Of a stretch of 44,986 nucleotides of DNA, positions 17,914-44,986 are shown piece after piece. This DNA is from an uncultured Clostridia bacterium (GTDB taxonomy: Bacteria > Bacillota > Clostridia > Christensenellales > CAG-917). How positions within the stretch are numbered: the first letter of the stretch is position 1; the number at the start of each line of letters is the position of its first letter. Where the stretch lies: assembly GCA_947589395.1 (NCBI GenBank), contig CANQAA010000003.1, positions 1 through 44,986 of the forward strand, written 5' to 3'. Position numbers and translations under genes: made by a program. The notes under the pieces are model-generated. The model worked only from the letters and a program-made list of their open reading frames with translations. It did no database searches and was not told where the DNA came from.

Positions 17914-18059
17914 ACCCAAAATCAAAACCGACGAGCGCTTTTTCAAAGCATAAGACGTGCACTCTTTGAAGACCTGCTTGAGCATGATGTTCCCCATTTG
18001 AAACATAATTAACGCACACTTAATAGAGGACGCCTTTAGCCGAAGTATAGTTTGACAAA

Positions 18060-18372
18060 CCCCTCAGTCTATCGACAGCTCCCCTAACTTTACCCCACAA
18101 AAACACAAAGTATTTTTGCGGGGACCCCATAAGGGCAGCCTTGCTATGGGAATATTAAGCGTGTTCTCTGTTTAGGCAAAGTTAGTCAATTAGTTTTATT
18201 TTCAAGATTTCTCAAGCAGGAATAGCTAATTTCAAAAATCTTCTATTTTCTCATTTGGTCATCAAAGTTAGCTTCAACTCGGTTACTTGGTGGTTTTCCA
18301 AAAGCCTCCTTTCGAGGCCGCCCTTAGTAAGGGGAACTGGCTGCGCCGCTTAGGCGGTCGCAGACTGAGGGG
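18060..18372. repeat. Inverted pair of REP-like elements; the left copy carries an inserted hairpin unit
   Basis: Left CCCCTCAGTC...CAGCTCCCCT...TAAGGGCAGCC (18060-18140); right reverse complement CCCCTCAGTC...CAGTTCCCCTTACTAAGGGCGGCC (18372-18316); insert at 18092-18128 matches the unit of the 41034 array. Confidence 0.75.
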
Positions 18373-18606
18373 ATTGTAAGCGAAAACATATTACGGGTTG
18401 AAAACTTTTTTCAAACTAAAACTCAGAGCGAGTGTAAATCCAATCACACAAAATAGCAAGCGGGCGATAACAAGCAAAATGAGTGGAAATTGACCTTAAT
18501 ATCGTAAAGCGAAGCGTATATTTTGCGTGCGCGGAGTGGCGATAAAATTGCGGTGCGCTCATAACCGCTTTCGACAGGAAAGCGTTGATCGCTGAGCAAT
18601 TTTGAG

Positions 18607-19002
18607 CTAATTATGCATTGGATTTTTGTAGCGTTTGCCGCAATTTGGACAGACGAGGGTGGGATCTTTTGTGACATCTATGGGTGCGCCGCACTCCGGG
18701 CACTCCACGACGTCGACTTGCGCGTCATTGCCCTGCCCTTCGTAGTTGTCGGAAAGCTGCATATATTTCGCCGCCTGACGGGCGCGTGCTTCGCGATTGA
18801 TCTCGGTCAGCTTCATGCCGTAAATAATGGTTCTTGCAAGCGCGCTTGCCAAAAGCCCTATCGAAAGGACGATAATTTCTACGCTATTCGAACGCCAATA
18901 GAAACGGCCTGCGGTGTAAATAATCAATGTCAAAGCGACCGCCATCCATATAACGCTCAACGCGAGCTTGAACCTAACTTTTTCCTTGTTATCGTTTTTC
19001 AT
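18607..19002 (-). CDS. Two-TM membrane protein with a C-terminal zinc ribbon
   Basis: Start ATG 19002 with AGGTGG SD; two hydrophobic helices; CPECG-x10-CPNCG. Confidence 0.75.
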   Translation of the reverse strand: MKNDNKEKVRFKLALSVIWMAVALTLIIYTAGRFYWRSNSVEIIVLSIGLLASALARTIIYGMKLTEINREARARQAAKYMQLSDNYEGQGNDAQVDVVECPECGAPIDVTKDPTLVCPNCGKRYKNPMHN

Positions 19003-19075
19003 AGTCCACCTGCCTTTTATATTTCGCACGATATATCATCGAACGAGATTTTGCCGTGCGCTCCTCACCCACAAA

Positions 19076-19423
19076 TCAGTTTGTTTTCTCGCCCTCTTCG
19101 TCGTCTTCGGGCACGAGACGGATGTAGCGCTTCGCCGCTTTTACGCTCTCAACTCGCGCAAGCTCTGAGATCTTCATGCCGTAGATAATGGTTCTTGCAA
19201 GCGCGCATCCGAATATTCCTATCGAGACGATTATCACGACCGCCATGACGTAAACGCCGTAAGGGTCGGTCGTTTTTATGGAATAGCCGCCAATGTTGAC
19301 CATATCGTAGTTTTTTTCTTCCATACAAGCTGAAAAAATGATCAAAGTCAAAGCGACCACCATCCAAATTATGCCGGAAAAGAGCTTGGTTTTGATTTTT
19401 TCTTTACTCTCATTCACTGTCAT
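19076..19423 (-). CDS. Two-TM membrane protein, paralogue of 18607..19002, lacking the zinc ribbon
   Basis: Start ATG 19423 with AGGTGG SD; shares KEK..KL...IWM.VALTLII and ALARTIIYGMK...AA..Y with its neighbour. Confidence 0.75.
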   Translation of the reverse strand: MTVNESKEKIKTKLFSGIIWMVVALTLIIFSACMEEKNYDMVNIGGYSIKTTDPYGVYVMAVVIIVSIGIFGCALARTIIYGMKISELARVESVKAAKRYIRLVPEDDEEGEKTN

Positions 19424-19430
19424 GATCCAC

Positions 19431-19484
19431 CTACCTTTTTTATTATAATCGTACAATCTACCTTTTTTATTATAATCGTACAAT
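19431..19484. repeat. Exact 27-bp tandem duplication in the promoter/5' UTR
   Basis: CTACCTTTTTTATTATAATCGTACAAT at 19431-19457 and 19458-19484. Confidence 0.95.
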
Positions 19485-29707: not shown

Positions 29708-32700
29708 TCACCTGTATTTCTTTTTGTCGAGGCGCCCGAGTTTGGACTTTCTCGCGATGAAGGCGACGAGCACTCCGAGCACAAACACGATGATCAAGCT
29801 GCCCGCGCCGATGATCAGATAGTTCAACCAGTTCGGGAGCGTGGGCTGTTCGACGTTGACGAACACGAGCGCGCCGAGATAATCCGTCTCATACACGATG
29901 CGTCCTTCCTCAAGATCGTACTCCAACTTTTCAAGGCCGCCTTCTGAGGTCTGCTTGTAGACCACAGTGCCGCTCATATCCTCTTTCACGCTCGAAGGCA
30001 ACGCCACGCTGAGTTTGAGCTTGACGCCCGTCGTGTTGACGATCTTTGCGTCGTAGTAGAGCGCGATCTGCAAGATGGAACTGACTCTGGCGTACTCATG
30101 GATCTTTGGCATATACGCCGCGATCGCGTTGTACACCGCACTGTCGTTCGCCGTGCCCTCTTGGGTGACGCTGTGCACGATGATCCTGTTGGCGATGAGC
30201 CTGGAGTCGTCCATGACCTCGACAGTCGCTCCGACCGCCACGTCGCCGTTTTTGTCCACGTTGTCATCGCCTGAGATGTCCAGCTTCTTTGCGAACAGCT
30301 CGAGCACGCCGGACTCGCCCGTCAACCTGTAGTTGCCCTGAATGTCGTCGGGCAAGGTCACTCTGAAGGTGTATCTGCCGGGCGCGTTGACGACCGTGCC
30401 GTCCTCCTGTTCGCGCATGAACTTCACGCTGAAGTCCGTCTTTTGGAGCTTGCCGTAGTTTTTGATGTTCAAATCGGGCTGATTGAAGGTGAAGTCGACG
30501 GTATATTCCTTGTCTTCGTAATATGTGCCGACAAACCTCTTGACAGCGCCTGAGTTCGCGTCCTCTTCGAGCTCCGAGCCGCCCGTGATGGAAATTTCGA
30601 CCACCGACGGCAACACGCTGTAGTCCGCGCTGACATAATACGCTCTGCCTTCGCTCTCGGTGATGAAGTTGCGCGCGAGCATATTTTCGCCGCCCTCGAT
30701 ATAGGAGAACTTGTCGCTGTTGATTGAAATCTCGACCCTGTACGTTCCCACATTCGCTTCCTTGAAGGCTTGCTCCGTGAGACGGCTCTCGCCTTGATAG
30801 AAGTTGACGTCGAACATCTCCGCCGTGATATTTGCGGCAAGAGGAATGTCGCTTCTCCAGGACACGAGGTCTGCCACGTCATACGCCTGTTCGAGCCCGT
30901 ACGAGCTGCTGACGGGAAGCGCCGAAAGCCGGATGTCCGCCTTTTCGACGATGAATGTGACGATCGCGTTGCCGTACCACACGACCTCTTTGCCCTCGTC
31001 GCCGTCGTCTATTTTGATCTTTCTTGTGAGCTTGACGGTGCCCGCGTTGCTGCCAACGTTGACGGTGTCAAACGCGACGTCCTCTTCACTCACGAGCCCG
31101 ATTTGATCGCCCTCGATATAGCCCATGATCGCGCTCGCAAGCTGATCTTGACCGTTATATGTGAATGTATACTCCGTGTTTGGCACGGACACGCCGAGCG
31201 TGCTCGGATCGGGCAAGGTCAGATTGAGCGTCGCTGTGGGGACCGTCTCATAATCCACGTTGTTGCCGAAATACGCTTCGCACTTATACTTGAGATAATA
31301 TTTTCCGTCTTCAAACTCAATGCCGCTGTCAAAGAAGGTGAACTCGTCGCCGAAGATGGTCGAGTCGCCCTCATATTCGTTTTCGCCGATGTGGAAGTAA
31401 TAGTTGATTATCTTATCCCTGTAGGCGTCAAGTCCGCCCGCGACGGAAGGCAGCCTCAACCTTGCAACGTACGCGCAATTTTCATCGAGTTCGGACGTGA
31501 GCTTGGGATATGCGCCGACGGATGTTATCTCGCCGCTCGCGCTGTTGAAGATCACCCACTCCACAACGGGGCTGTAGTCCACGCCGTCGATGATGAACAC
31601 GTTTGAGATGTTGTCCCACGAGGCGAGCGGCGTCAAGTTGCCGTTGCGGTCGTAGAACACGATGTTGTATGCGGGTCTCCAAGTTGCGCCGTAGCTCGCT
31701 TGATACTCCGTCTTTGAGACGACGTCGATCGAAACGTACAAGTGTCTCCTCTCGACGGTGAGCGAGCCCTCGTTGACGTAGGCGAACGTGAAGAATTGAC
31801 TCTCGCCGCCGTTGAGCACAAAATGTTCGTTGTCAACGACAGTGCCCGCGTTTGGCCTTGCCGTATCAAACGTTGCGGTCGCGTACGGCAGGCTCATTAT
31901 CGCGCCCTCGAGACGGATATATTCTCCGCTTTCGCTGTCCACTCTCTCGCCGCTTTCTCCGAAATTAAATCTGAATGCGTTGAGGCGCTCGTAGGAACTC
32001 TCCTTGCCGGTAAATTTATCGTCCGTCTTATAGCCCATTGCCTCGCAGAAGTCCTCATACTTCATATAGAAGTACATCTCGCCGCCGTTGCTGAACAGCG
32101 TGACTTCTTTGTCGCCGAGCTTATACGCTATCGTATAGTTGCTCTCGGCGATCCTGTTGTTGTCATAAAGCAACGTGCCGTACTCTATGCTGCCGTCCTG
32201 CAAGATCGCGCTGAGGTGCAGTTTTGAGATCGATCCTTGATAGGAAGCGCTCAGCCTCGAGCCCGCTTCGATGACCTTGTAGTTTGCGGACTCGTCCTCG
32301 CCTGTCTCCTGATTGCCGAAGATCTCATCGATGTTGAACGTGACAGCCGAAGCGTCCGTACCCGCGCTGTTGAAGCTTGCGACGATCGACTTGATCTTGA
32401 CCTTGCCAAAGTCGCACTCGACCAATCCCTTGATCGCGTCGTCACTGAAGAAGTAGTCCTTATATCTTTCGCCAAAGAACAGATCCGTGCCGTCGTAGAC
32501 CTTGTGGAAGGGCGCGGGATTGATGATGTGAAGTTTGTTTGCGTCAAGATAAACTTCCTTTTGCTCTATCTTGCCGCTCTCAAACGCGAGATACGTCACC
32601 GTGCTTGAAAGCGTCCCTTCGCCTCCGTCGCCAAGATACACAGTGCCGCCGCCGTAGCTGTACGCGCTGATTATCTTGTTCGCGTTGTCTTTATTATATT

Positions 32701-35700
32701 CACTATAGTAGTTGCCGACGATGGGAAGCGGATAATAGTAGACTATGCTCTGCCCGCTCGCCAAGCCCATTTCGGGAGCAGTGCCGGAAACAGTTCCTTG
32801 CGGATTGACATAGCTGCCATTCTGAACAGCCTCCTCTTCCTCTTTGGTCGGGAATCTATAGTACGCTCTGAGGAGCACCTCGCCGCTTGCAGAGACGATC
32901 TCGAACATGTCGGGAGCGACTTCCCTCTTTTCGCTTATCACGACGAGCTCATAGTCCATATCGCCCGTGCGGTTGTTGCGAAGCGTCGGGTCGATGACCG
33001 CGCCGCGTTTTGCGATTATGTTGCCTTCCGCGTCAAATTGCACGTTCTTGTCCGTGAAGTACGCGCCGCCTCTTGCCCACAGCGAATATTTCGCCTGATC
33101 TCCCGCGATGAAGTGAGCGGAGTTGAACTCATAGCTCACCGCCGACGGGTCGATGTTGGGCGTGCTGTCGTAGACCTTGTCCTGCACGACGACTGTTGCG
33201 CTGACGGGGCGTTGCTTGATCGTGCCCGTCTTTTCGCGGCTGTAGGTCAACGGCTCGTAGTTTTTGAGCATGATCTCGCCTGCCGCCGCGTCCTCGCCCG
33301 TGTAGTTGAGTTTGGGCATTTCGGTGAAGCGGATGGGGATGTTCGTGCCTGCGTTTGCGTACACGAAGTTTGCCGCCGCCATGATGGACAGATACGGTCT
33401 ATCCTTGTCCGCGACGAAGAACCTGTTCTCCTCGTCGAGGTCGTTTTCGGGGATGATGACCGTTATATCCACGCTCGTCGTGCCGTCGTAGACCTTGTCC
33501 GGGATGATGATGGACTCCTCGAGCACCTGGAAGGCGCGCCTTGTCAAGGTCATGACGCCCTCGAGCTCGAAGTCCGCGATCGGCTCTTCTCCAAACGTTT
33601 CGTTTTCTATCTCTTGATACTCGCCGTCCGCAAATCTCACGCCGTCGAGGGTGTAGTTTTTGAGATAACCGTTTTCATCTTTTATGCTCATGCCCTTGAA
33701 GATGACGTTGTGCTCCGCAACCGCCTCGCCGTCAAACATGACGTTGGGGTTTATCTCGCCCTTGTCGGAGAGGAAGATTCCGCCGTCGTCTGCAAAGGAA
33801 ACGACGAGTTTTTTAAGCTCCGCCCTCAACTCGGTGAAATCGTTTTCCGAGTCGTCTATCAGTCCGTGCTCGTGGCCCGCGAGCGTGAGGGTGAAAGACT
33901 TGCGGTCTGCAACTTTGACGTCGTACAAGACGTTGCCCTGCTCGTCCTTTTGGATCGCGCCGTCAACGCGCTTGGGAGTGAAGTAATAGATCGGCTCGCC
34001 GTTTTCGTCAAGAAGCGTGACGTACGTTAGACCGTCGTACATCCTGTTCTCAAAGCGTCCCAATATGCGGAGTTTTGCCTTTGAGATGACGACGTCGAAG
34101 AAGAGGCTGTCATCGCCCTCGTTCTTTATGTCGCTTCCGTCTTTTTGGACATACGCCGAGAACACTCTGCAGATGGAGTCCATGTCGAACTCAAAGTCGC
34201 TCGCGTTTGCGCCGACGGCCTCGACCTTGTCGATGACGACCATCCATGTGCCCGCGTCTTGGGTGTGCTCGCCCTTCTCGTCGACGGGGTGACCCGTGAC
34301 CCTGATCCTTCTTGCCGCGTTCGCGAAGTCGGGAAGTTTGGCGTTGAAGGTCGGCACGACGTTGATGCCGTCTTTGGCGTTGTACTCGCGATCTTCCGCG
34401 TCCATCTTGTCAAAGTAGCTCGCGTCGACCATGAGCGGCGTTATCTGCGCGGACATATTTGTGAAGATGACGTTGATGTACTCGCCCTTGTCGTCCGTTG
34501 TGCCCGTCCTGTAGGCTATGCCGCTGTCAGGGATGAGTCTTGAGCCAAAGTGCGTCGCGTTTTCGACGTAGAAGCGGAGGGTGAAGCCGATGTGGTAGTT
34601 GCCGAGTGCGTGCACGTCGGAGTATGCCGGGACGCCCACGTTATGCGCGACTTCCGCGCTTCCCACGAGATACACTTCGCCTATCCCGCCTTCCTTGTTG
34701 AACTCGTTGTAAAGCACGGCGTTGCTGCCGCTCTCCTCCTCGCGCAGGTAGGTGAACGTGATGTTGCCAATATACAGCAATCCGTTGTTGTCGTAAACCT
34801 TTGTTATTGTGAAGTCGCTCTGTTTCAACACGATGTTGACGCCGGTGATGACGATCGCCTCCGTGTTGTCCCCGTTTTTCATATAGAAGATGATCGCGAT
34901 GATGTCGTCGTTTTCGGCAAACTTGAGCGAAGGTTGCTTTTCGCCCGCCTCGCCGTTTTTGAGCGTTGCGTTGAACGAGACCTCGCCCGCCGCGTTGGGG
35001 TTGACGATCTCAAAGAGCTCGTAGTTCATCACTCTTGCGCCATTGAGGCGGATATTCGAGATGATGATGCCGACGTTTGTGTCCTCGTGAGCGACGCCCG
35101 CTTGGTCGTACACCGCGTCAAAGACGAGTGTGATCGCGTCGTTGTTGAGGATGTCGCCGTCATCAAAGATATACGTCACGGGGTTGGGGATGACGGCGTC
35201 GCCGTTGTACATCTTGCCCGCGCCCCTGAAGTTGTTGAGGGTGATGGTGAGCTGCTTTTGTTTGATCTGCAAGCGCGTGGTCTTGCCCTCGTCCGCCGTG
35301 ACGGAGAGGTTGGAGTCGTTCGAGCGGATGCCGTTGTTGTACAGCGCGTAATAATAGTCGTCCGAGACTACCTCGCCGCCCTCGAGCTTGAACGCGACGC
35401 CCATATCGTCAGACGCGTTGTCGAATTGGCTGCTGCCCGACCTATAGCCGTCGCCCGCCACGTTGTAAAGCGCGCGGACGTAGCTGCCCGTGATCTTGCT
35501 CTTCAGAGTCGCGTAGCCCATATCCGCGAGAGTGCTACCCTCGTTGAACTCCTCGCCGTTGACCTCGTAGATCTCAAAGTTAATGCCGTAGGCGCTTTCC
35601 TGCTCGCCGTAGGTCTTGAAGTTTTGCGAAAGTGTAGCTCTCACTTTGACCGCCGCCGGGTTGTAGGTCACGGGGACTGCCACGACGTTGACCGTGACGG

Positions 35701-38700
35701 CTTGAGTTTTCGCGTCGTTTTGGACATCGACGCCGCCCAAATACATGTGCGCGTTGACAAATCTCGCCTCGTATGCGCCGACGGTGGGATATTGCTCGCT
35801 GTAAGGCGCGTTACGGCTGTACAATTGCACTTCCCAAGTTATTCTGTCGTACTTGGGCATCTTTGACTCGTCGCCGTCCGCCCTTTCGAGGGTGAACGCG
35901 CCCGCGACGAACTTGAGCCAATCGTTGTCCCACGCCATGCCGTAGTTTTTGACGAGCGCGCCTTCGTTAAATCTGACGAGGATAGCGTCGCCCGCCGAGA
36001 AGAGGAACAAATAATATTGTTCTTGTTCTATAATATACTTTACATTCGGTGTAATATAGGTGTGACCGTCATCGTCGACGCTGTCGCCCGCCGCAAATGT
36101 GATGAGGGATCTGAGCACCGCGCTGTAGTCGTCGTAGCCGACGGGATTTTCCCATCTTATGGCTTCTCCGAGCATGATTTTGCCCTTGACCTGCTCTAAG
36201 ATCGTATTTTGCATGGCCACGCTCAAGCTCAATTCCTTATCCGAAAGCGACGGGTCCGGAATGTACTTGCTCACATCATCGACGCTCGGCTCTGCCATAT
36301 AGCCCATGACCGTTGAGCCGCCGACGACCAAGACGACCTCTCTTTGCGTGATGGTGAACTTGCCCGTCGAGCTCACGAATGTTATCGGCAAAATGGCGTT
36401 CGCGCCCGCGAAGTTTGCGGTCTCGGCATAGTCATACGACTTGACGTCCTTTGTCGCGAAGTCCTTTCTCTTGATAATGCTGTTTTCGCTGCCCTCCACC
36501 TCGAAGACGAAGTAGCCTGTATCTTCGTCAAAGTCATATCTCGTCGAAAGTTCGTGGTTGCCGGGATGCGGCGCGTAGTTTGAAAGCGAGAGGTCGAGGA
36601 TAAACAAAATGCACTCGTCGATGTTCCCCGCGTCCTTAAGGCAGCTCCAAGCGGGGCTATTTTCAAATTGCGATCTCTTCACGCCGTATTTGTAGACCTC
36701 GACGGGGTCGCCGTACACGCCTTGCGCGTTGAGGGCGTCCACTTTGAGCTCGTTTGGCGTGATGTTGAAGTTGTAGACTTTGTCAAGCGTGACGGTGTAG
36801 TTGTTGCAATTGAACGAGAGCAAAATCTGATAGCTTGTTTTGCCAACGCCGAGCTTGAGGATCTCGAGCGCGTTCTTTGCCTCTATCTGCTCCCAATCTA
36901 TGCCCGTACCCGTGAGGTCGAGGCTCAAATCGAATTTGAAACCTTCCGCCTCCGCGATCTCGGCTGTGAAGTTGTCGTCCGTGTATCTGATCAAGCCGTT
37001 CAACATATCGGGGTCGAATTTCCCGTAGACGGCCTTCGCGTTCTCTTCGTTTATGGACGCGGTCACGGCAAGAGGCGCAATGACAAAATCCCATTCGCTT
37101 ATGCCGTCAAAAGTGAACGCGCCATCGCTAAATGCGTACGACCAATCCATGACCAAGCCGCTTTCGCCCTCTTCCTCTTCCCTGAGCTTCAACTTCGCGC
37201 CCTTGAAGACGTAGCTCGTGTTTGCGGTTACTTTTTTGCCTTCCTCGTCAACTTCGCCGTTTGGGATATATGCGAGCACATAGTATGTGCCGCTGTCTTT
37301 CATATTGTCTTTGTCTATTTTCGTTAGCTTCTCGCCGTCAACTTTGAAGTACAAGAACTCGAACGCCTTCCTCAAATTTTCCGTGTTATCGGCAATGCCG
37401 GAGATCGGGTTCACTATAAATCTTGGCTCTTGCGAATTTCTGTTGTAGAACACGTTTCGTGAGCTCGCGTCCATGAGATACCAATCGATAGGGGCGGTGG
37501 TTTCGTCCACTCGATAGGTTTCGTCCACGATCAACCTGCACGCGAGGGTGAATGTGACGGCGTTGCCCAACTTGCCATAGCCGTTGTTGTCGAGGACATA
37601 GGAGAAGGAGCTTGTTCTGCTCGTATCGTCAAAGCCATCGTTGGCTCCCGAGATGAGCGAATCATACCCCTCCGCAATTTGCCACTTGCACGCCGCCGAA
37701 TAGTTGAACAAGATGACGTCGCTGTTGAGCATGAGTTTGAATGGGGCGTACATGCTGCCAAACGTCATCGTGACATTGACGGTCCCTCCCCTCTTGACAG
37801 ACGTTTTATTCGCCGTTATGCTCGCAATCCCCGCATTGTCGGCAATGTCGTTTTTCTCGATCGCCGTGCTCACATCATAATCATTCGCGTCCGCGAGGAT
37901 GACGTAGGAGCTGCACCCCGAGTACAATCCCGCCTGGTCCTTTGCAAACAGCACGACGAGCTTTATGCCCACGCTATTTATTGAGTTGAGCGCGACGGAA
38001 GCGGTCGTGTCGTTGCCTAAGTTGAGTTGTTGCTGATTATCGTTTATTGCATGTCCGAACAATTGCCATGCGTTTTTTTGCATGTCGTCAAACGAGTCTG
38101 CCGTCTGAAAGAAGGTTTTGTTATCTTTGTTGGCTGTTATGAACGTTTTGAATTCATCGAGGGTGGCGAACGTCTTCACTCTCCAGCCGACGTAGAAGTT
38201 GTTCTTGTACGCCTTGTCCTCCGCTTCGCTTGCCAAAAACGCGTCCGCGTATGCCTTGACGACGGTTGAGAACGTCACGGAGTCCGTATACCACAATTTG
38301 TCAATGGAAAAGTCCTCGCCGAACACGCTGTTTTCTTTTGTTTGCAACTTCTCCGTCTCGCCAAACGTGGGAGTGTCGGGGGCGTGCCTGTCTATGAGGA
38401 CGTAAACGCCCGTGTCCATATATTTCGAAACAGTGTGTTTGTCATTGCTTGGGTTTACAAGACTTTCAATAGGCGTCCAGCCTGTGGGAGCTTGCCAAAC
38501 GCCGGGCAAGCTGTTGCCGTTGCCGACCGTCAAGCCGCCGCTCTCCAAGCCTTTCTTGGCGACGTAAGTCGTGTTGAAGTCGACAAAATCAAATTTGTCG
38601 CTGTCCTTCACGCCCAATTTCAACTCGTACATTCTGTCTTCCGACCCGCTTTGAGTGAACTTTAGCGTTATGATTATATCATGATTTGCGGAGTCCGTGC

Positions 38701-41017
38701 ACTTGAGCTCATACGTCCCGTCCGTAGCAGGCTCAACGGAAGTTGTGCCGCTAAACACTTTTATGTCCGCGCTCCAAGTGCCGCTTTTTTCCGAGACGGT
38801 GTAGCTGCTTGTGAGGATAATGGTGAAGGAAGAGTCTCCCACCTTGAAGTACACGGTGTTGCCCATATAGTTGAGTTCCACCTTGAAGGTCATGGAGAGC
38901 TCTCCCGTCGCCCACACGCGACTTTGAACGTTCGCGTCGGACGCGTTTTGCGGCAGCGGGCCGTTTGTTGAAGACAAGATTTGCACATTCCTCCCGCTCG
39001 CGTCGTCATCATATGACATATTGTAGTCAATGCTCAAATTTTTGTAGTCCACCTTGACAAAGTAGCTCTTGACGCGCGACATGGTCGTATCCGTCGTGTT
39101 GTTGCCCGCGAGGTCGTATGTGTAGAAGTCAAAGCGATAAAATCCGTCGCCCGTGACCGGATTGCTGTCTAAATTGCCGGATTTGTCATACACAGTTCCG
39201 CTTGACGACTTTGCGCCCGCTTTGCCGTCCGTAAAGCTGTACACAAAACTCATGCTGTCAAACGAGAGCACGTCCAGCTTGCCCGTTTTGACGTATGTAT
39301 CGTAAAAATCTTTTGCCGAGATGTCCGCAAGCGCTTTTAGCGCCGCCAAATCGTTTGTCCTGCGCACCGCGTAGTACCAAACCTGTTGCGAAACGCCGCC
39401 GTTGCTGTTGTTTGCAATTGAGAGCTCGTCAAAGACAGTCGTTTGCAGCCAATTTGCGGACTCAATGTTCTTGTCCTGTTTTGCAGTGCTGTTGTTGTTC
39501 AACGTAACTTCGGTTGTCGGATCGTTGGGGTCAATGCCGTCCACATTCAATGTGAATGATATCGAAGTTTTGTCCGGACCGAATTGCGTAATAGAGATAG
39601 CAACTCCACCATTTTTGGTTTCGCTGTTGTACGGCGCATTATCCGCAAAATATAACGTTGCCTGCACTGTCGCGTAATCGGTGATTTCAATCTTTATCCT
39701 GCCAACTTCTTTGTTGTTGGCTCTTAGTGGCAGCACTTTATTTTTTCCTGTGGATAAACTGCTTGCCACATAAATCGTGGCGTCGCTTCCGTCGCCGATT
39801 TTTATCACCCTCAAGCAGTTTTGTTTGTTTGACCCGCTATTCAATGTCAAAGCGGCTTGTTTATACCAATTATAATCTTCTCCATTGAGGTTCACGGTTT
39901 GTTTATCTTTGTTACCAACATAAGAAATCATGTTGATGACTGTCGAATCGGATATTGAAGGTAAATTGTCTTTTTTTTCATTAATAGCGGCGATGATTTC
40001 ATCGTTTGGCGCATAAAAAGAATAATTGTCTTTGTTGCTTTCGGTTACGTCCTCTGTCCTTGTGTTTGGAGTATAAACGCCCGTTGCCTTTGGATCGTTA
40101 GTGTTGCTTGTATTGTTCAAGGTCACGGTATACTTTATTGTCAATTCGGACAGATAGATCCACACGTCATCACCGGACGCTATAAACGACGGTTTACTGT
40201 GTGATACCTTTCCTCCCGCCAAAATGTATCCGGCGCCATTATAGTCATTAATTGTATAGGTATAGCTCACATTATCCGATTCTCCGGCACTGTTATTGTT
40301 TTTAATATCTTTTAAATTTTTCGTGCTAAGATTTTCAAATTCCTTTCCTTCATGGCTTGCCGACGATGAGGTTGAAAAACATGCATACACATGCTTTGAA
40401 GCCCCACTCCATCTTATATTGCCAAATGTAACTTCGATTTTAATCGTAAAAAGATTGTTTTTATCTTCTTTTGCAAGTTGATTGAGTTGCGTCGGCACTT
40501 GATACAATATTCCTATTGCAAAGTGCAATTCACTCGTGAATGGTTCTTTATTTCCGATTTCCCACATGTTATATTGTGTATTTTTATCGGTAGAAGATCG
40601 CACATAGGTATTGTTACAATTGCTTTTGTAAGCGCCTTGATTGTCCAAAGTAACTTTATGATTGTTGAATGTTTCCGTAAACGTCCAGGATGTCGATGTG
40701 GATTGTTCAAGACCGACGCCGCTATCATCTTTCAATGTGTTCAGATCAAAATCCCCATTGTCGCCTTGAATTGGGCTCATGGTCAAAAAACTGCCGGCAG
40801 TGCCCGATTGCCAGCCCGGAAGACTACCATTTGGAACCTCATCGCCGGGCGTATGTGTTGCCTCCGCGACATTGCCGACCGAAGCGTCGGGAGCGTCAAA
40901 AACCCCCTCGCCAAACGCAAGCGACAGCGTGAACACCGCAACAAAGCATACCGCGATAAGCGCAAGCCTCAATGCATTGAAAAGTCTGTTCCTCTTTTCA
41001 CCAACGATCCTCATCAT
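29708..41017 (-). CDS. Giant (3769 aa) membrane-anchored surface protein / putative adhesin with Ig-like, MBG-like and YDG-like repeats
   Basis: Uninterrupted ORF; GGGGTG SD; N-terminal signal/TM; recurrent K/R-x-Y-D/N-G motifs (GKMYNG, NRMYDG, DKVYDG, HKVYDG), xYG motifs (QGVYGD, FKTYGE), DLAGN/DQAG; C-terminal TM plus basic tail, no LPxTG. Confidence 0.9.
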   Translation of the reverse strand: MMRIVGEKRNRLFNALRLALIAVCFVAVFTLSLAFGEGVFDAPDASVGNVAEATHTPGDEVPNGSLPGWQSGTAGSFLTMSPIQGDNGDFDLNTLKDDSGVGLEQSTSTSWTFTETFNNHKVTLDNQGAYKSNCNNTYVRSSTDKNTQYNMWEIGNKEPFTSELHFAIGILYQVPTQLNQLAKEDKNNLFTIKIEVTFGNIRWSGASKHVYACFSTSSSASHEGKEFENLSTKNLKDIKNNNSAGESDNVSYTYTINDYNGAGYILAGGKVSHSKPSFIASGDDVWIYLSELTIKYTVTLNNTSNTNDPKATGVYTPNTRTEDVTESNKDNYSFYAPNDEIIAAINEKKDNLPSISDSTVINMISYVGNKDKQTVNLNGEDYNWYKQAALTLNSGSNKQNCLRVIKIGDGSDATIYVASSLSTGKNKVLPLRANNKEVGRIKIEITDYATVQATLYFADNAPYNSETKNGGVAISITQFGPDKTSISFTLNVDGIDPNDPTTEVTLNNNSTAKQDKNIESANWLQTTVFDELSIANNSNGGVSQQVWYYAVRRTNDLAALKALADISAKDFYDTYVKTGKLDVLSFDSMSFVYSFTDGKAGAKSSSGTVYDKSGNLDSNPVTGDGFYRFDFYTYDLAGNNTTDTTMSRVKSYFVKVDYKNLSIDYNMSYDDDASGRNVQILSSTNGPLPQNASDANVQSRVWATGELSMTFKVELNYMGNTVYFKVGDSSFTIILTSSYTVSEKSGTWSADIKVFSGTTSVEPATDGTYELKCTDSANHDIIITLKFTQSGSEDRMYELKLGVKDSDKFDFVDFNTTYVAKKGLESGGLTVGNGNSLPGVWQAPTGWTPIESLVNPSNDKHTVSKYMDTGVYVLIDRHAPDTPTFGETEKLQTKENSVFGEDFSIDKLWYTDSVTFSTVVKAYADAFLASEAEDKAYKNNFYVGWRVKTFATLDEFKTFITANKDNKTFFQTADSFDDMQKNAWQLFGHAINDNQQQLNLGNDTTASVALNSINSVGIKLVVLFAKDQAGLYSGCSSYVILADANDYDVSTAIEKNDIADNAGIASITANKTSVKRGGTVNVTMTFGSMYAPFKLMLNSDVILFNYSAACKWQIAEGYDSLISGANDGFDDTSRTSSFSYVLDNNGYGKLGNAVTFTLACRLIVDETYRVDETTAPIDWYLMDASSRNVFYNRNSQEPRFIVNPISGIADNTENLRKAFEFLYFKVDGEKLTKIDKDNMKDSGTYYVLAYIPNGEVDEEGKKVTANTSYVFKGAKLKLREEEEGESGLVMDWSYAFSDGAFTFDGISEWDFVIAPLAVTASINEENAKAVYGKFDPDMLNGLIRYTDDNFTAEIAEAEGFKFDLSLDLTGTGIDWEQIEAKNALEILKLGVGKTSYQILLSFNCNNYTVTLDKVYNFNITPNELKVDALNAQGVYGDPVEVYKYGVKRSQFENSPAWSCLKDAGNIDECILFILDLSLSNYAPHPGNHELSTRYDFDEDTGYFVFEVEGSENSIIKRKDFATKDVKSYDYAETANFAGANAILPITFVSSTGKFTITQREVVLVVGGSTVMGYMAEPSVDDVSKYIPDPSLSDKELSLSVAMQNTILEQVKGKIMLGEAIRWENPVGYDDYSAVLRSLITFAAGDSVDDDGHTYITPNVKYIIEQEQYYLFLFSAGDAILVRFNEGALVKNYGMAWDNDWLKFVAGAFTLERADGDESKMPKYDRITWEVQLYSRNAPYSEQYPTVGAYEARFVNAHMYLGGVDVQNDAKTQAVTVNVVAVPVTYNPAAVKVRATLSQNFKTYGEQESAYGINFEIYEVNGEEFNEGSTLADMGYATLKSKITGSYVRALYNVAGDGYRSGSSQFDNASDDMGVAFKLEGGEVVSDDYYYALYNNGIRSNDSNLSVTADEGKTTRLQIKQKQLTITLNNFRGAGKMYNGDAVIPNPVTYIFDDGDILNNDAITLVFDAVYDQAGVAHEDTNVGIIISNIRLNGARVMNYELFEIVNPNAAGEVSFNATLKNGEAGEKQPSLKFAENDDIIAIIFYMKNGDNTEAIVITGVNIVLKQSDFTITKVYDNNGLLYIGNITFTYLREEESGSNAVLYNEFNKEGGIGEVYLVGSAEVAHNVGVPAYSDVHALGNYHIGFTLRFYVENATHFGSRLIPDSGIAYRTGTTDDKGEYINVIFTNMSAQITPLMVDASYFDKMDAEDREYNAKDGINVVPTFNAKLPDFANAARRIRVTGHPVDEKGEHTQDAGTWMVVIDKVEAVGANASDFEFDMDSICRVFSAYVQKDGSDIKNEGDDSLFFDVVISKAKLRILGRFENRMYDGLTYVTLLDENGEPIYYFTPKRVDGAIQKDEQGNVLYDVKVADRKSFTLTLAGHEHGLIDDSENDFTELRAELKKLVVSFADDGGIFLSDKGEINPNVMFDGEAVAEHNVIFKGMSIKDENGYLKNYTLDGVRFADGEYQEIENETFGEEPIADFELEGVMTLTRRAFQVLEESIIIPDKVYDGTTSVDITVIIPENDLDEENRFFVADKDRPYLSIMAAANFVYANAGTNIPIRFTEMPKLNYTGEDAAAGEIMLKNYEPLTYSREKTGTIKQRPVSATVVVQDKVYDSTPNIDPSAVSYEFNSAHFIAGDQAKYSLWARGGAYFTDKNVQFDAEGNIIAKRGAVIDPTLRNNRTGDMDYELVVISEKREVAPDMFEIVSASGEVLLRAYYRFPTKEEEEAVQNGSYVNPQGTVSGTAPEMGLASGQSIVYYYPLPIVGNYYSEYNKDNANKIISAYSYGGGTVYLGDGGEGTLSSTVTYLAFESGKIEQKEVYLDANKLHIINPAPFHKVYDGTDLFFGERYKDYFFSDDAIKGLVECDFGKVKIKSIVASFNSAGTDASAVTFNIDEIFGNQETGEDESANYKVIEAGSRLSASYQGSISKLHLSAILQDGSIEYGTLLYDNNRIAESNYTIAYKLGDKEVTLFSNGGEMYFYMKYEDFCEAMGYKTDDKFTGKESSYERLNAFRFNFGESGERVDSESGEYIRLEGAIMSLPYATATFDTARPNAGTVVDNEHFVLNGGESQFFTFAYVNEGSLTVERRHLYVSIDVVSKTEYQASYGATWRPAYNIVFYDRNGNLTPLASWDNISNVFIIDGVDYSPVVEWVIFNSASGEITSVGAYPKLTSELDENCAYVARLRLPSVAGGLDAYRDKIINYYFHIGENEYEGDSTIFGDEFTFFDSGIEFEDGKYYLKYKCEAYFGNNVDYETVPTATLNLTLPDPSTLGVSVPNTEYTFTYNGQDQLASAIMGYIEGDQIGLVSEEDVAFDTVNVGSNAGTVKLTRKIKIDDGDEGKEVVWYGNAIVTFIVEKADIRLSALPVSSSYGLEQAYDVADLVSWRSDIPLAANITAEMFDVNFYQGESRLTEQAFKEANVGTYRVEISINSDKFSYIEGGENMLARNFITESEGRAYYVSADYSVLPSVVEISITGGSELEEDANSGAVKRFVGTYYEDKEYTVDFTFNQPDLNIKNYGKLQKTDFSVKFMREQEDGTVVNAPGRYTFRVTLPDDIQGNYRLTGESGVLELFAKKLDISGDDNVDKNGDVAVGATVEVMDDSRLIANRIIVHSVTQEGTANDSAVYNAIAAYMPKIHEYARVSSILQIALYYDAKIVNTTGVKLKLSVALPSSVKEDMSGTVVYKQTSEGGLEKLEYDLEEGRIVYETDYLGALVFVNVEQPTLPNWLNYLIIGAGSLIIVFVLGVLVAFIARKSKLGRLDKKKYR

Positions 41018-41033
41018 ATTTCACCCCATTTGT

Positions 41034-41385
41034 ACCCCACAAAACCACTTCGTAATTTTGCGGGGACCCCGATTTTATTGCCCCACAAAAACATTGCATA
41101 TTTTTGCGGGGACCCCGAATTTTTGCCCCATAAAAACAGACAAGCTGTTTTTGCGGGGACCCCGATTTTTGCCCCACAAAACCACTTCGTAATTTTGCGG
41201 GGACCCCGATTTATTACCCCATAAAAACAGACAAGCTGTTTTGATGGGGACCCCGATTTTTGCCCCAACAAATCGACAAAGCAATTTGTTGGGGACCCCG
41301 ATTTATTACCCCACAAAAACATTGCATATTTTTGCGGGGACCCCGATTTTTTCCCAAAAAAATTATCGCATAATTTTTTTGGGGA
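41034..41385 (-). repeat. Tandem array of 7 complete + 1 degenerate ~45-bp hairpin units with variable loops
   Basis: Plus-strand unit CCCCAYAAAA-loop-TTTTGCGGGG-ACCCCGATTT; stems start at 41035, 41081, 41126, 41172, 41217, 41263, 41309, 41353. Confidence 0.95.
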
Positions 41386-41523
41386 AAATCTCAATCTTTT
41401 TGTTTTTGTTCCCACAAAACATTTTATGCTTTTGCAAGGAAAGTTTTTTTGTTCTTCCCTTTTCGGGAAATTTGATCTATTTTTCAAACTCTTCAAACTT
41501 TAGTAAATCATCTTGGGTCTTAT

Positions 41524-41744
41524 GCGCGCTTGCGTGAGAATTCATGCCTTGCACCGCGCAACAATTTGTCTCCCTCTCTCACGCGCTTTGTGACTCGTCT
41601 CTCTCGTTGTTCGCACGCGCTGTGACTCGTTCTCGTATTCGCACGCGCATGCTTTTATAACTCGTTTTTCACGCGCCTTTGTAGCTCGTCCTTCTCGTTT
41701 CTTTCAAGCGTTTTGCAACTCGTTCCCGCACGCGCTTGCGTGAG
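41524..41744. repeat. Degenerate tandem repeat (CACGCGC-TTTGTGA-CTCGT) bracketed by a 14-bp direct repeat
   Basis: Units at 41580, 41614, 41642, 41670, 41705, 41729; CGCGCTTGCGTGAG at 41525-41538 and 41731-41744. Confidence 0.75.
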
Positions 41745-41773
41745 CATAGGCGCGCACATAATTATGCAATAAT

Positions 41774-41803
41774 ATATTACAACAACATATCGACCTATGT
41801 CAA
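41774..41803 (-). promoter_or_regulatory. Candidate sigma-A promoter for the giant gene (implies a ~750-nt leader)
   Basis: TTGACA (41803-41798)-18 bp-TAATAT (41779-41774); no better promoter seen nearer the ATG. Confidence 0.5.
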
Positions 41804-41895
41804 TACCCAATTTTTTCCGCGCGGTAATTATTAAATTTTTCCTGCGCGAAAATCGCCGCCTGCAGACGGCTGAAATCTTTCTTTGAAAAGAAAAT

Positions 41896-43155
41896 TCACC
41901 AATTCAAAGTTTTTTCGGGGTTGAGGAGGAAGTCCGAGAGGGAGGCGATCAAAATGCCCTGTTCGTTGTAGCCCGTCATCACCTCGTCGCCGACGATGAT
42001 GATCTTTTTGAACGCGTCGCCGATGGAGAGCAAAGAGGCTTGTTCCTGCTTGCGCTTTAGCTCGTCCGGCATGCGATAGGCGCATTGAATGTAATATCTG
42101 CGATCTCCCAAATTTGCGACGAAGTCCACTTCAAGCTGTTTGCGGGACGACTCGCCGTCGAGATTTACGCTTGCCTCGACCACGCCCACGTCGACGGAAT
42201 ATCCGCGCAACTTCAATTCGTTGAAGACCACGTTTTCCATGATGTGATTGTACTCCTGTTGACGGAAAGAGAGCCGCGCGTTTCTCAGCCCCATATCCAC
42301 AAAATAATATTTCGACGGGGTGTTGATATACTTTTTGCCCTTGATGTCGTAGCGCACGGCGCGCTCGATGAGGAAGGAGTCCTGCAAACAGTCGAGATAT
42401 GAGGATATTGTGTTTGCGGAGATCTTCACATTCTTTTGCGAGTTGAATGTGTTTGAGAGCTTCAGCGGGTTCGTGAGAGACCCTATCGACGAGGCGAGAA
42501 CGTCCGTCAGCTCGCCTATCTCGGCGTTGCCGCGCAAGTTGTTGCGATTGATTATGTCCGCAAGATAGGTCGTCGAAAACAGGTCTTTCAAATATTTCAT
42601 CTTGTCCTGCTCGGACTTCATCGTGAGGCAAAGCGGCATTCCGCCGTACGTCGCAAAGTTGCGCCACGCCCTGCCAAACGGCGTGTTGGGGTCGAGAGTG
42701 GAGCTGTATTCCGCAAAACAAATCGGATAAACGCGTATCTCGTCCCCCCGCCCGCGAAACTCCGTGATTATGTCGCTCGAGAGGAACTTCGAGTTGCTGC
42801 CCGTCACATAGACGTCCGCGTTCGGAATGTGCAAAAACCCATTGACCACGCTCTCGAAATCGGGCACGAGCTGTATCTCGTCCAAAAGGATATAATACAT
42901 CTCGCCGTCCTTGATCTGCCCCTTGACAAACGCGTAAAGCTCGTTGGGGTCTTGCAACTTTTTGTTGCCGTAATCCTCGAGCGAGACCTTGACGACGTGA
43001 TCCTCGCGCACGCCCTCTTTCAAAAGATGCCGATAAAACAACCCGAACAAAAGATACGACTTGCCGCATCTGCGCACGCCCGTGACGATCTTGACCATGC
43101 CGTTAAGCTTGTGGTCTATGAGTTTGTTGAGATACAAGTCCCTTGCAATTTCCAT
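41896..43155 (-). CDS. AAA_14 + DUF4143-type ATP-binding protein
   Basis: Walker A GVRRCGKS, Walker B LLDEIQ, VTGSNS, YGGMP, KYYFVDMG, ENVVFNEL, EVDFV..YYIQC. Confidence 0.9.
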   Translation of the reverse strand: MEIARDLYLNKLIDHKLNGMVKIVTGVRRCGKSYLLFGLFYRHLLKEGVREDHVVKVSLEDYGNKKLQDPNELYAFVKGQIKDGEMYYILLDEIQLVPDFESVVNGFLHIPNADVYVTGSNSKFLSSDIITEFRGRGDEIRVYPICFAEYSSTLDPNTPFGRAWRNFATYGGMPLCLTMKSEQDKMKYLKDLFSTTYLADIINRNNLRGNAEIGELTDVLASSIGSLTNPLKLSNTFNSQKNVKISANTISSYLDCLQDSFLIERAVRYDIKGKKYINTPSKYYFVDMGLRNARLSFRQQEYNHIMENVVFNELKLRGYSVDVGVVEASVNLDGESSRKQLEVDFVANLGDRRYYIQCAYRMPDELKRKQEQASLLSIGDAFKKIIIVGDEVMTGYNEQGILIASLSDFLLNPEKTLNW

Positions 43156-44672: not shown

Positions 44673-44701
44673 TTGAAATGCGCGCCGTGCTTTGCTATAA
44701 T
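44673..44701 (+). promoter_or_regulatory. Strong sigma-A promoter firing into the CGACA array
   Basis: TTGAAA-17 bp-TATAAT with TG extension. Confidence 0.75.
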
Positions 44702-44730
44702 ATATCAGGCAATGGAATATAGTAGGCAAT

Positions 44731-44986
44731 GGCGACATATTGCGTTACGGCGACATATTGCGACAAAATCCGACATGATGCGACAATCCATTCGCTCCTG
44801 TCGACATAGTTCGACACAATATGGCAAAATGCGGCAATCTAATCGCTTGCTTCAACATAAAACGACATAAATCGACGAACTAACTGCTCGTTTCGGTAAA
44901 ATTCGACATAAATCGACTTAATGCGACCGACCCGTTCGCGCTTGTCGACATAAATCGACATAATATGACGAAATGCAACAATCTAA
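44731..44986 (+). repeat. Nested periodic array: CGACA pentamers every 10 bp, grouped in blocks of 3-4 with a ~51-bp super-period (truncated by the window end)
   Basis: Pentamer starts 44751/61/71/81, 44802/12/22/32, 44853/63/73, 44894/904/914/924, 44946/56/66/76. Confidence 0.9.

Follow-up and report, generated by a model that had tools for sequence, protein, structure and literature searches.

Capped palindromic hairpins in a head-to-tail array upstream of a giant gene of an uncultured Clostridia bacterium

A row of hairpin-forming units stands directly upstream of the ribosome-binding site of a giant gene in an uncultured Clostridia bacterium (Christensenellales, CAG-917), which raises the question whether these units form a regulatory leader of that gene or a local cluster of a dispersed repeat. 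The stretch of DNA that was analysed, referred to as the window, comprises 44,986 nt (positions 1 to 44,986 of contig CANQAA010000003.1, assembly GCA_947589395.1). The giant open reading frame (29708-41017, minus strand) encodes 3769 amino acids with a signal-like N-terminal segment and a C-terminal membrane anchor. Its start codon (ATG, 41015-41017) is preceded by the ribosome-binding site GGGGTG (41022-41027, minus strand). Because Pfam gives only a YDG domain and NCBIfam nothing, the product is regarded as a putative adhesin.

Structure of the array and its allelic forms

Tandem Repeats Finder delimits an array at 41023-41362 with a period of 46, 7.5 copies and a score of 282. The whole array extends over 41035-41439 and consists of seven canonical units of 45-46 bp, one degenerate unit and one decayed unit. 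The hairpins of units 1 to 8 start 46, 45, 46, 45, 46, 46 and 44 bp apart, and the gap between unit 1 and the ribosome-binding site is 7 nt (41028-41034). Coordinates read directly and the repeat finder thus agree with the preliminary description of this DNA, which reported eight hairpins at 44-46 bp spacing about 7 bp from the Shine-Dalgarno sequence. A unit is built from a 14-bp hairpin with CCCC/GGGG caps and a linker that forms GGGG(A/T)CCCC. On the minus strand it reads (A/T)TCGGGGT, CCCC, stem, loop, return stem, GGGG and the TA-rich linker, which begins with UA(A/C)AA or CAA. The palindrome GGGGACCCC, originally ascribed to every unit, is located 3' of units 1-7 on the plus strand (seven matches) and is missing from unit 8.

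The loops follow one another in the order A,B,C,A,C',D,B,E, as a comparison of the units confirmed. Except for unit 8, all units are placed on the minus strand. Unit 2 (hairpin at 41081-41111; stem type 1, GCA triloop) is identical in 38/38 bases to copies on contigs C1 and C6 of the same genome. The same holds for unit 7 (41309-41339), which is of the same type, is 97.7% alike to unit 2 and scores 68.7 bits with the covariance model R1 of the family. Unit 5 (41217-41249, type 3) matches C1:54657-54696 in 40/40 bases. Unit 6 (41263-41294, type 2) shares 97% identity with copies on C17 and C20, so that its stem change, once taken as compensatory, represents a separate stem subtype that is itself dispersed. 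Units 1 and 4, in contrast, have no close copy elsewhere in the genome: unit 4 (41172-41202) is a local duplicate that equals unit 1 (41035-41065; type 1, GAA triloop on the minus strand, 66.4 bits with R1) in 41/41 bases. Unit 3 (41126-41158) is a chimera of type 3 and type 1 arms with two mismatches, its 5' arm being that of unit 5 and its 3' arm that of units 1 and 2. Unit 8 (41353-41384, no strand assigned) is a degenerate, near-perfect palindrome with CCC/GGGG caps that has no relative elsewhere in the genome, and unit 9 (approximately 41410-41439) is a decayed type 1 hairpin with mutated caps. The array is therefore a mosaic of dispersed subtypes (units 2, 5, 6 and 7), local duplication (units 1 and 4) and recombination (unit 3). 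The suggestion that it grew by the addition of one unit at a time is partly supported: the closest or equally close relatives of units 2, 5, 6 and 7 reside at other loci, units 1 and 4 form the local duplicate pair and unit 3 is the recombinant.

A sense frame of 160 codons is open through the array (41014-41496, minus strand), and its TGA stop overlaps the ATG of the giant gene (ATGA). Mycobacterial MIRUs share an open sense frame whose stop overlaps the start of the next gene; Supply et al. are said to have described them in 1997 as tandem intergenic units of about 46-53 bp. In the present array, chance suffices to explain the open frame: stop codons are almost absent from the units, and a frame likewise stays open in 17081 of 20000 random unit orders. 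A translated, MIRU-like array was rejected for this reason, and no plausible start with a ribosome-binding site was seen.

Short contigs from an independent sequencing run (X3) confirm the junction between the gene start and unit 1 (40909-41051), units 3-4 (41149-41201), units 4-5-6 (41173-41267) and units 5-6 (41227-41301). The whole array is spanned by no read or contig, and a single short-read assembly underlies the number of units and their succession. A shorter allele is present in contigs of two further runs, X1 (contig of 4017 nt) and X2 (9138 nt), which match 40863-41029 and 41393-41978 with 97.6-99% identity (differences at 4/167 and 6/586 bases, respectively). The matched flanks, the second of which includes unit 9, are separated by 88 nt in this allele as opposed to 363 nt here, and 35 of the 88 nt align to unit 8 in inverted orientation; no other unit of the array aligns. 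The related strain therefore keeps the promoter, leader, ribosome-binding site and signal-peptide region with room for at most two units. Since the X1 and X2 contigs stop matching on the gene side of 40863 (upstream of 40863 in window coordinates), the gene body differs in this strain, too. The number of units hence differs between strains; as to unit order, the X3 contigs confirm four junctions but not the whole succession. A metagenome scan for other alleles with a 21-mer of the gene-side flank gave one match, a chance hit on an unrelated marine scaffold.

Distribution, fold and strand asymmetry of the hairpin family

The units belong to a family that is dispersed over the genome. In the assembly of 1.32 Mb and 97 contigs, 41 copies of the motif GGGG(A/T)CCCC were counted; they form 21 clusters, are spread over 14 contigs and often sit at contig ends. 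Capped hairpins number 44 with up to one mismatch and 49 with up to two, and three main stem types recur across the genome. The covariance model R1 finds at least 45 copies in this genome (G000) and matches 35 of 51 other genomes of the genus, with counts per genome from 1 to at least 130; the highest are at least 130 (G008), at least 128 (G007) and at least 114 (G059), all counts being lower bounds from the scoring of 122 candidates per genome. Beyond the genus, 3 of 150 genomes sampled evenly from the phylum match at E ≤1e-5. BLAST with the array sequence yielded hits in 12 of 24 genomes of the same genus and in none of 16 genomes from other families of the order. The motif count, the hairpin finder, the unit copies at other loci and model R1 consequently agree with the earlier proposal of a REP-like dispersed family. 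In the whole window, no Rfam family matched at the gathering score, and the array overlaps only chance-level matches (E ≥0.087 in a search up to E 1); a scan for tRNA and tmRNA genes found none. A literature search by motif strings and keywords, outside supplementary files, found no description of the capped-hairpin family. Together with the Rfam result, this fits the view that the family may be undescribed.

All 20 checked clusters in the genome are intergenic. A hairpin census assigned 29 hairpins to gaps between convergent genes and 5 to gaps between divergent genes; in the gaps of tandem genes, 19 units point in the same direction as the genes and 11 in the opposite one. The census used crude open reading frame calls, and 29 hairpins fell 'inside' such frames. 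There is no clear tie of unit orientation to the direction of transcription, and the 19 co-oriented versus 11 anti-oriented units may reflect a mild bias at the RNA level. Among each other, the units are strictly ordered: all 28 neighbouring pairs (≤62 bp apart) share one orientation, 23 of them at a spacing of 45-46 bp. The 94 sampled loci comprise 70 single, 17 double and 6 triple loci, and the array at the giant gene, with its seven canonical units, is the largest.

Some units are embedded in composite elements. A second family locus in the window (18056-18380, no strand assigned) is an element of about 325 bp with inverted ACAA(T/A)CCCCTCAG ends, one type 1 capped hairpin (18093-18123) and an AT-rich core. 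Composite elements with inverted ACAATCCCCTCAG ends, such as this one and C20:15604-16107, hold units at several loci. The end motif CAATCCCCTCAG has 31 copies in the genome and sometimes forms a bare palindrome of 38-41 bp (C9, C23 and C47). Neither CAATCCCCTCAG nor any other shared end module was found beside 41023-41440. Two further repeats were observed in the window. A perfect 27-bp tandem duplication (19431-19484, 2.0 copies, 100% match) is located just upstream of the second of two look-alike small hydrophobic open reading frames on the minus strand (approximately 18607-19029 and 19076-19483). The non-coding end of the window contains a cluster of 10-bp (T/G)CGACATAA(A/T) boxes (44699-44963), several of them in tandem pairs, which look like putative iterated protein-binding sites.

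The 441-nt array region folds far better than shuffled sequence (z = -6.9 on the minus and -7.9 on the plus strand), with none of 100 shuffles folding as well. Single units distinguish the strands: units 1, 2, 4 and 7 reach -17 to -18 kcal/mol on the minus strand as opposed to -9.4 to -9.7 kcal/mol on the plus strand, with -18.3 versus -9.4 kcal/mol for unit 1. These energies bear out the reading that an A.C mismatch on the plus strand is a G.U pair on the minus strand, and that folding is strand-specific and favours the strand of the giant-gene mRNA.

At the family level, an alignment was made of 70 distinct units, drawn from the window and from 370 kb of genome G008. In the 14-pair helix, 96.4% of the cells pair, compared with 87.0% after shuffling (500 shuffles, none as high) and 43-58% with slid partners, and both sides have changed at 7 of the 14 pairs; as the units were chosen by a finder that demands pairing and are related by descent, this statistic is partly built in. 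Stronger than this is the one-strand asymmetry: the GGGGT tag 5' of the hairpin and the wobble pairs share a strand in 72 of 73 informative hairpins. A U.G pair occupies one inner position in 55 of the 70 units, and pair 5 is G.U in 30. Of 104 hairpins, 89 (55 of the 65 unique ones) are more stable on the tagged strand, with a mean difference of 4.2 kcal/mol, and DNA parameters give the same direction for type 1 units (-8.7 and -9.7 versus -5.8 and -6.8 kcal/mol). In the window, the tag lies on the sense strand of the giant gene. GNA triloops, pointed out early for single units, are the norm of the family with 50 of 70 units, 35 of which are closed by C-G. DNA mini-hairpins with C(GNA)G triloops were reportedly found by Hirao and colleagues to be unusually stable. 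A G-quadruplex formed from paired GGGG runs, which had also been considered, finds no backing: no motif with loops of ≤12 nt exists on either strand of the array, and only long-loop patterns (≤36 nt) occur, on the minus strand.

The hairpin is not confined to the genus. A scan of a species-genome collection with a 17-mer covering the 3' arm and the palindrome returned at least 128 exact matches at no fewer than 117 loci; according to our own arithmetic, about 70 chance hits of a 17-mer would be expected in that collection. Among the matches listed, 84 of 128 have a matching 5' arm, and 65 of these 84 carry the same A.C/G.U mismatch. By lineage, the mismatch is found, again among the matches listed, in 3/3 from Dehalococcoidales, 4/5 from Saccharimonadales, 3/3 from Bacteroidales and 2/2 from WOR-3/Stahlbacteria; Bipolaricaulota and Dormiibacterota are represented as well. 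A record of the cultured Carboxydothermus islandicus contains three tandem units with the same mismatch. Not counted were twelve listed matches from Bifidobacteriaceae MAGs, in which the arm is a longer variant; the remaining 32 listed matches are chance-like. Contamination of genome bins is argued against because each phylum has its own loop length.

Candidate mobilising enzymes and known repeat systems

Only the distribution of the family suggests that it is mobile. The link to HUH enzymes of the RAYT type, raised in the preliminary description, did not withstand examination. The own genome (92.7% complete) has no match to Y1_Tnp (PF01797), the domain occurs in 3 of 12 repeat-rich genomes of the genus (≥21 units) versus 9 of 40 others, and no units lie within 1.5 kb of four Y1 genes. 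RAYT was rejected as mobiliser for the genus on these grounds of absence, distribution and distance. Single-strand nucleases of the Ssn/GIY-YIG type were rejected as well. A single GIY-YIG match was found in the own genome, within an open reading frame of 618 aa; small GIY-YIG genes are present in 3 of 12 repeat-rich genomes versus 8 of 40 others in the genus, and one of six examined loci (in G059) has units close by. The gene at this locus, which encodes 93 aa (L157, G059:C9, 1379-1873), is bracketed on both sides by a different element, a complete palindromic module of about 85 nt (GGGGGATTCCTCGAC ... GTCGAAACATCCCC), each copy of which is then followed by a capped hairpin. This module is absent from the genome of the window. 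The layout at G059 resembles the repeat-flanked ssnA genes described in PMC11893778. A recurrent neighbour gene was sought by an all-against-all comparison of 376 open reading frames within 1.2 kb of units (117 loci), which gave only repeat-derived frames. Comparison of one G008 locus with five related genomes revealed neither a clean empty site nor a target duplication; the coding flank is 74-87% identical and the intergenic part is full of other repeat families.

In its behaviour, the family is closest to the pneumococcal BOX elements, a comparison made by description and not by sequence. The boxB module has a size of 45 bp. In the family studied here, a locus holds 1 to 7 units with a period of 45-46 bp, and the allele in X1 and X2 is shorter. 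BOX of Streptococcus pneumoniae (boxA - boxB(n) - boxC) is, according to Croucher et al. 2011 (PMC3049150), a head-to-tail arrangement of a hairpin module in variable number, which differs between strains, most so in large arrays. The same paper describes BOX elements as intergenic, co-transcribed with their neighbours, containing fortuitous open reading frames and exerting orientation-dependent effects downstream, and reports composite loci with other modules and inverted ends, to which the ACAATCCCCTCAG-ended elements correspond. In contrast to BOX, the array at the giant gene has no flanks like boxA or boxC and mixes several stem subtypes, and the capped-hairpin family extends over several phyla, BOX over a few streptococci only (PMC3049150).

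REP, BIME and REPIN elements are imperfect palindromes of 20-40 nt, extragenic and present in high copy number, with enrichment between convergent genes, an unpaired tag at one end and several families per genome, as Di Nocera et al. 2013 (PMC3733652) describe them. The capped hairpins are 31-33 nt long, extragenic and present in many copies. They differ from REP and REPIN elements in three of four features tested, namely the tag, the RAYT gene, a Y1 (HUH) transposase gene that such repeats often flank, and the inverted pairing. The tag is (A/T)TCGGGGT in the 70-unit alignment instead of GTAG or CGTC (PMC3733652), RAYT is absent from the own genome and not associated with the repeats across the genus, and neighbours are always direct (28/28) instead of inverted doublets. 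NTS/SRM repeats, which are cut by Ssn GIY-YIG single-strand nucleases, are short tagged hairpins, too; according to Chenal et al. 2025 (PMC11893778), they number hundreds of copies, act as single-stranded DNA, cluster around particular genes and occur in several phyla. Their CGTC tag and ATTCCC...GGGAAT stem, as given there, are unlike the capped hairpins, and the own genome contains no small ssnA-like gene flanked by units. With regard to MITEs, which combine terminal inverted repeats with a target-site duplication, the hairpin arms are inverted repeats, and none of the compared sites is clean enough for a duplication to be read. The capped-hairpin family finds its best place among the small interspersed palindromic repeats, a known kind of which it would be an undescribed member.

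The putative leader of the giant gene and the meaning of the array

A probable promoter of the giant gene is located at 41774-41803 (minus strand) with the sigma-70-like elements TTGACA and TAATAT separated by 18 nt. It is part of a block that recurs upstream of giant genes in G017 and G060, distant relatives with 27-28% identity to this one at the N-terminus, and that comprises an A-rich stretch, TTGACA, a spacer, TAATAT or TATCAT and then ATTATTGCATA..TGCGCGC. The sharing of this block suggests that it is the giant-gene promoter and that the array lies in a 5' leader of about 750 nt. Further features of such leaders were observed. Purine-rich 28-bp tandem repeats are present at 41520-41700 within the putative leader (repeat finder row 41580-41648, minus-strand reading), and purine-rich tandem repeats likewise lie between promoter and start of the distant G017 giant gene (L129:1290-1450). 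Upstream of another giant open reading frame in G008 (L003, G008:C8, approximately 1390-1400), a run of 11 G precedes a terminator-like hairpin; the leader in the window has no such tract. When the whole 791-nt leader is folded (40980-41770, minus strand), four of the six bases of the ribosome-binding site pair (P unpaired 0.06-0.14) with a partner located upstream of the array.

The position of the array makes a co-opted cis-regulatory leader conceivable, in which seven sense-strand hairpins would tune the giant gene via mRNA stability, ribosome access or copy-number (phase-like) variation. The array separates the conserved promoter block from the ribosome-binding site and stands in the best-folding orientation; its sense orientation and its distance of 7 nt from the ribosome-binding site are compatible with a local function, it is the largest of the 94 sampled loci, and its unit number varies between strains. 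A precedent is provided by boxB modules, which can inhibit downstream expression depending on their orientation, the larger BOX arrays being the most strain-variable (PMC3049150). Other giant genes argue against such a role: the three units upstream of the one at G008:C8 are antisense, and those at G060:C7 lie upstream of the promoter and are antisense as well. Moreover, the related strain keeps promoter, leader and signal-peptide region with 88 nt in place of 363 nt, and the same units are found at unrelated intergenic sites. Sequestration of the ribosome-binding site by CCCC runs, an early suggestion, is not borne out by the folds, in which its bases remain unpaired (P 0.66-0.94) with 1 to 9 units present. 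An intrinsic terminator or attenuator was rejected, as none of the three terminator-like sites in 40900-42000 falls within the array and the sense-strand units are followed by UA(A/C)AA, not by a U run. The idea of a co-opted or conserved structured leader is thus unlikely to be correct, and the evidence stands mostly against a dedicated regulatory role at the giant gene.

The regular 45-bp period, the conserved flanks with variable centres and the strand-specific structure would also suit a small-RNA or CRISPR-like array, in which each unit or 'loop' is an informational element processed from a precursor. Yet the variable centres measure 3-13 nt and are identical at other loci, no Rfam family matches, 70 of the 94 loci are single units and the 376 open reading frames within 1.2 kb of units (117 loci) include no recurrent protein family, which leaves this explanation scarcely credible. 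A CRISPR array in the strict sense was rejected on the 45-bp period and on centres of 3-13 nt that recur elsewhere, as compared with unique spacers of about 30 nt or more. An assembly artefact would mean that short-read metagenome assembly took a chimeric path through dispersed repeats and so produced the array, or the number and succession of its units. Such an artefact is suggested by stretches of 38-44 nt that units share identically with other loci, by the many family copies at contig ends, by the array being unspanned by any read or contig and by the shorter form in X1 and X2. It is nevertheless very unlikely: four junctions are confirmed by the independent X3 contigs, the linkers differ between units so that paths longer than about 45 nt are unique, and tandem arrays in the 45-bp register exist at 23 other loci of at least two units.

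We consider it likely that the array is a local head-to-tail cluster of a non-autonomous and probably selfish palindromic micro-repeat, which accumulated in the leader of the giant gene and whose effect there is incidental. On one strand, the 45-bp unit is made up of (A/T)TCGGGGT, a 14-bp stem with CCCC/GGGG caps, usually a C(GNA)G triloop, G.U/G.T wobbles at fixed positions and a TA-rich linker. Dispersed copies would have supplied units of several stem subtypes, through repeated insertion or gene conversion, to the long untranslated leader of the giant surface-protein gene, where local duplication and recombination added to them. The active form would be a single strand. We lean towards single-stranded DNA, given that C(GNA)G triloops and G.T pairs speak for hairpins of DNA and that the units are oriented independently of transcription. 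By analogy with boxB arrays, the effect of the array on the gene is probably incidental and would at most modulate mRNA stability or translation. A further-reaching proposal, put forward tentatively and with more doubt than belief, is that the capped hairpin is the substrate of an undiscovered single-strand-specific mobilising or processing enzyme, neither RAYT nor Ssn, which would spread the micro-element across at least six phyla and insert it beside its own copies into 45-bp head-to-tail arrays. The (A/T)TCGGGGT tag, the fixed wobbles and the C(GNA)G triloop would define the substrate of such an enzyme, and the array at the giant gene would be a live hotspot that alters surface-protein expression between strains.

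For the likely case of an accumulated micro-repeat, the locus carries a warning that a striking structured leader need not be a dedicated regulator, since the array is strain-variable and probably incidental. The units also have practical consequences: they break short-read assemblies, as is seen from the many copies at contig ends, and they can mimic RNA genes or open reading frames in annotation. The main interest resides not in the giant-gene locus but in the conservation across phyla and the question of the mobiliser. One tiny hairpin, its mismatch and tag unchanged, is shared by gut Clostridia, Dehalococcoidales, Saccharimonadales, Bacteroidales, WOR-3 and Carboxydothermus, and as no known mobilising gene was found beside the family, the spread of gene-less palindromic repeats becomes a testable question.
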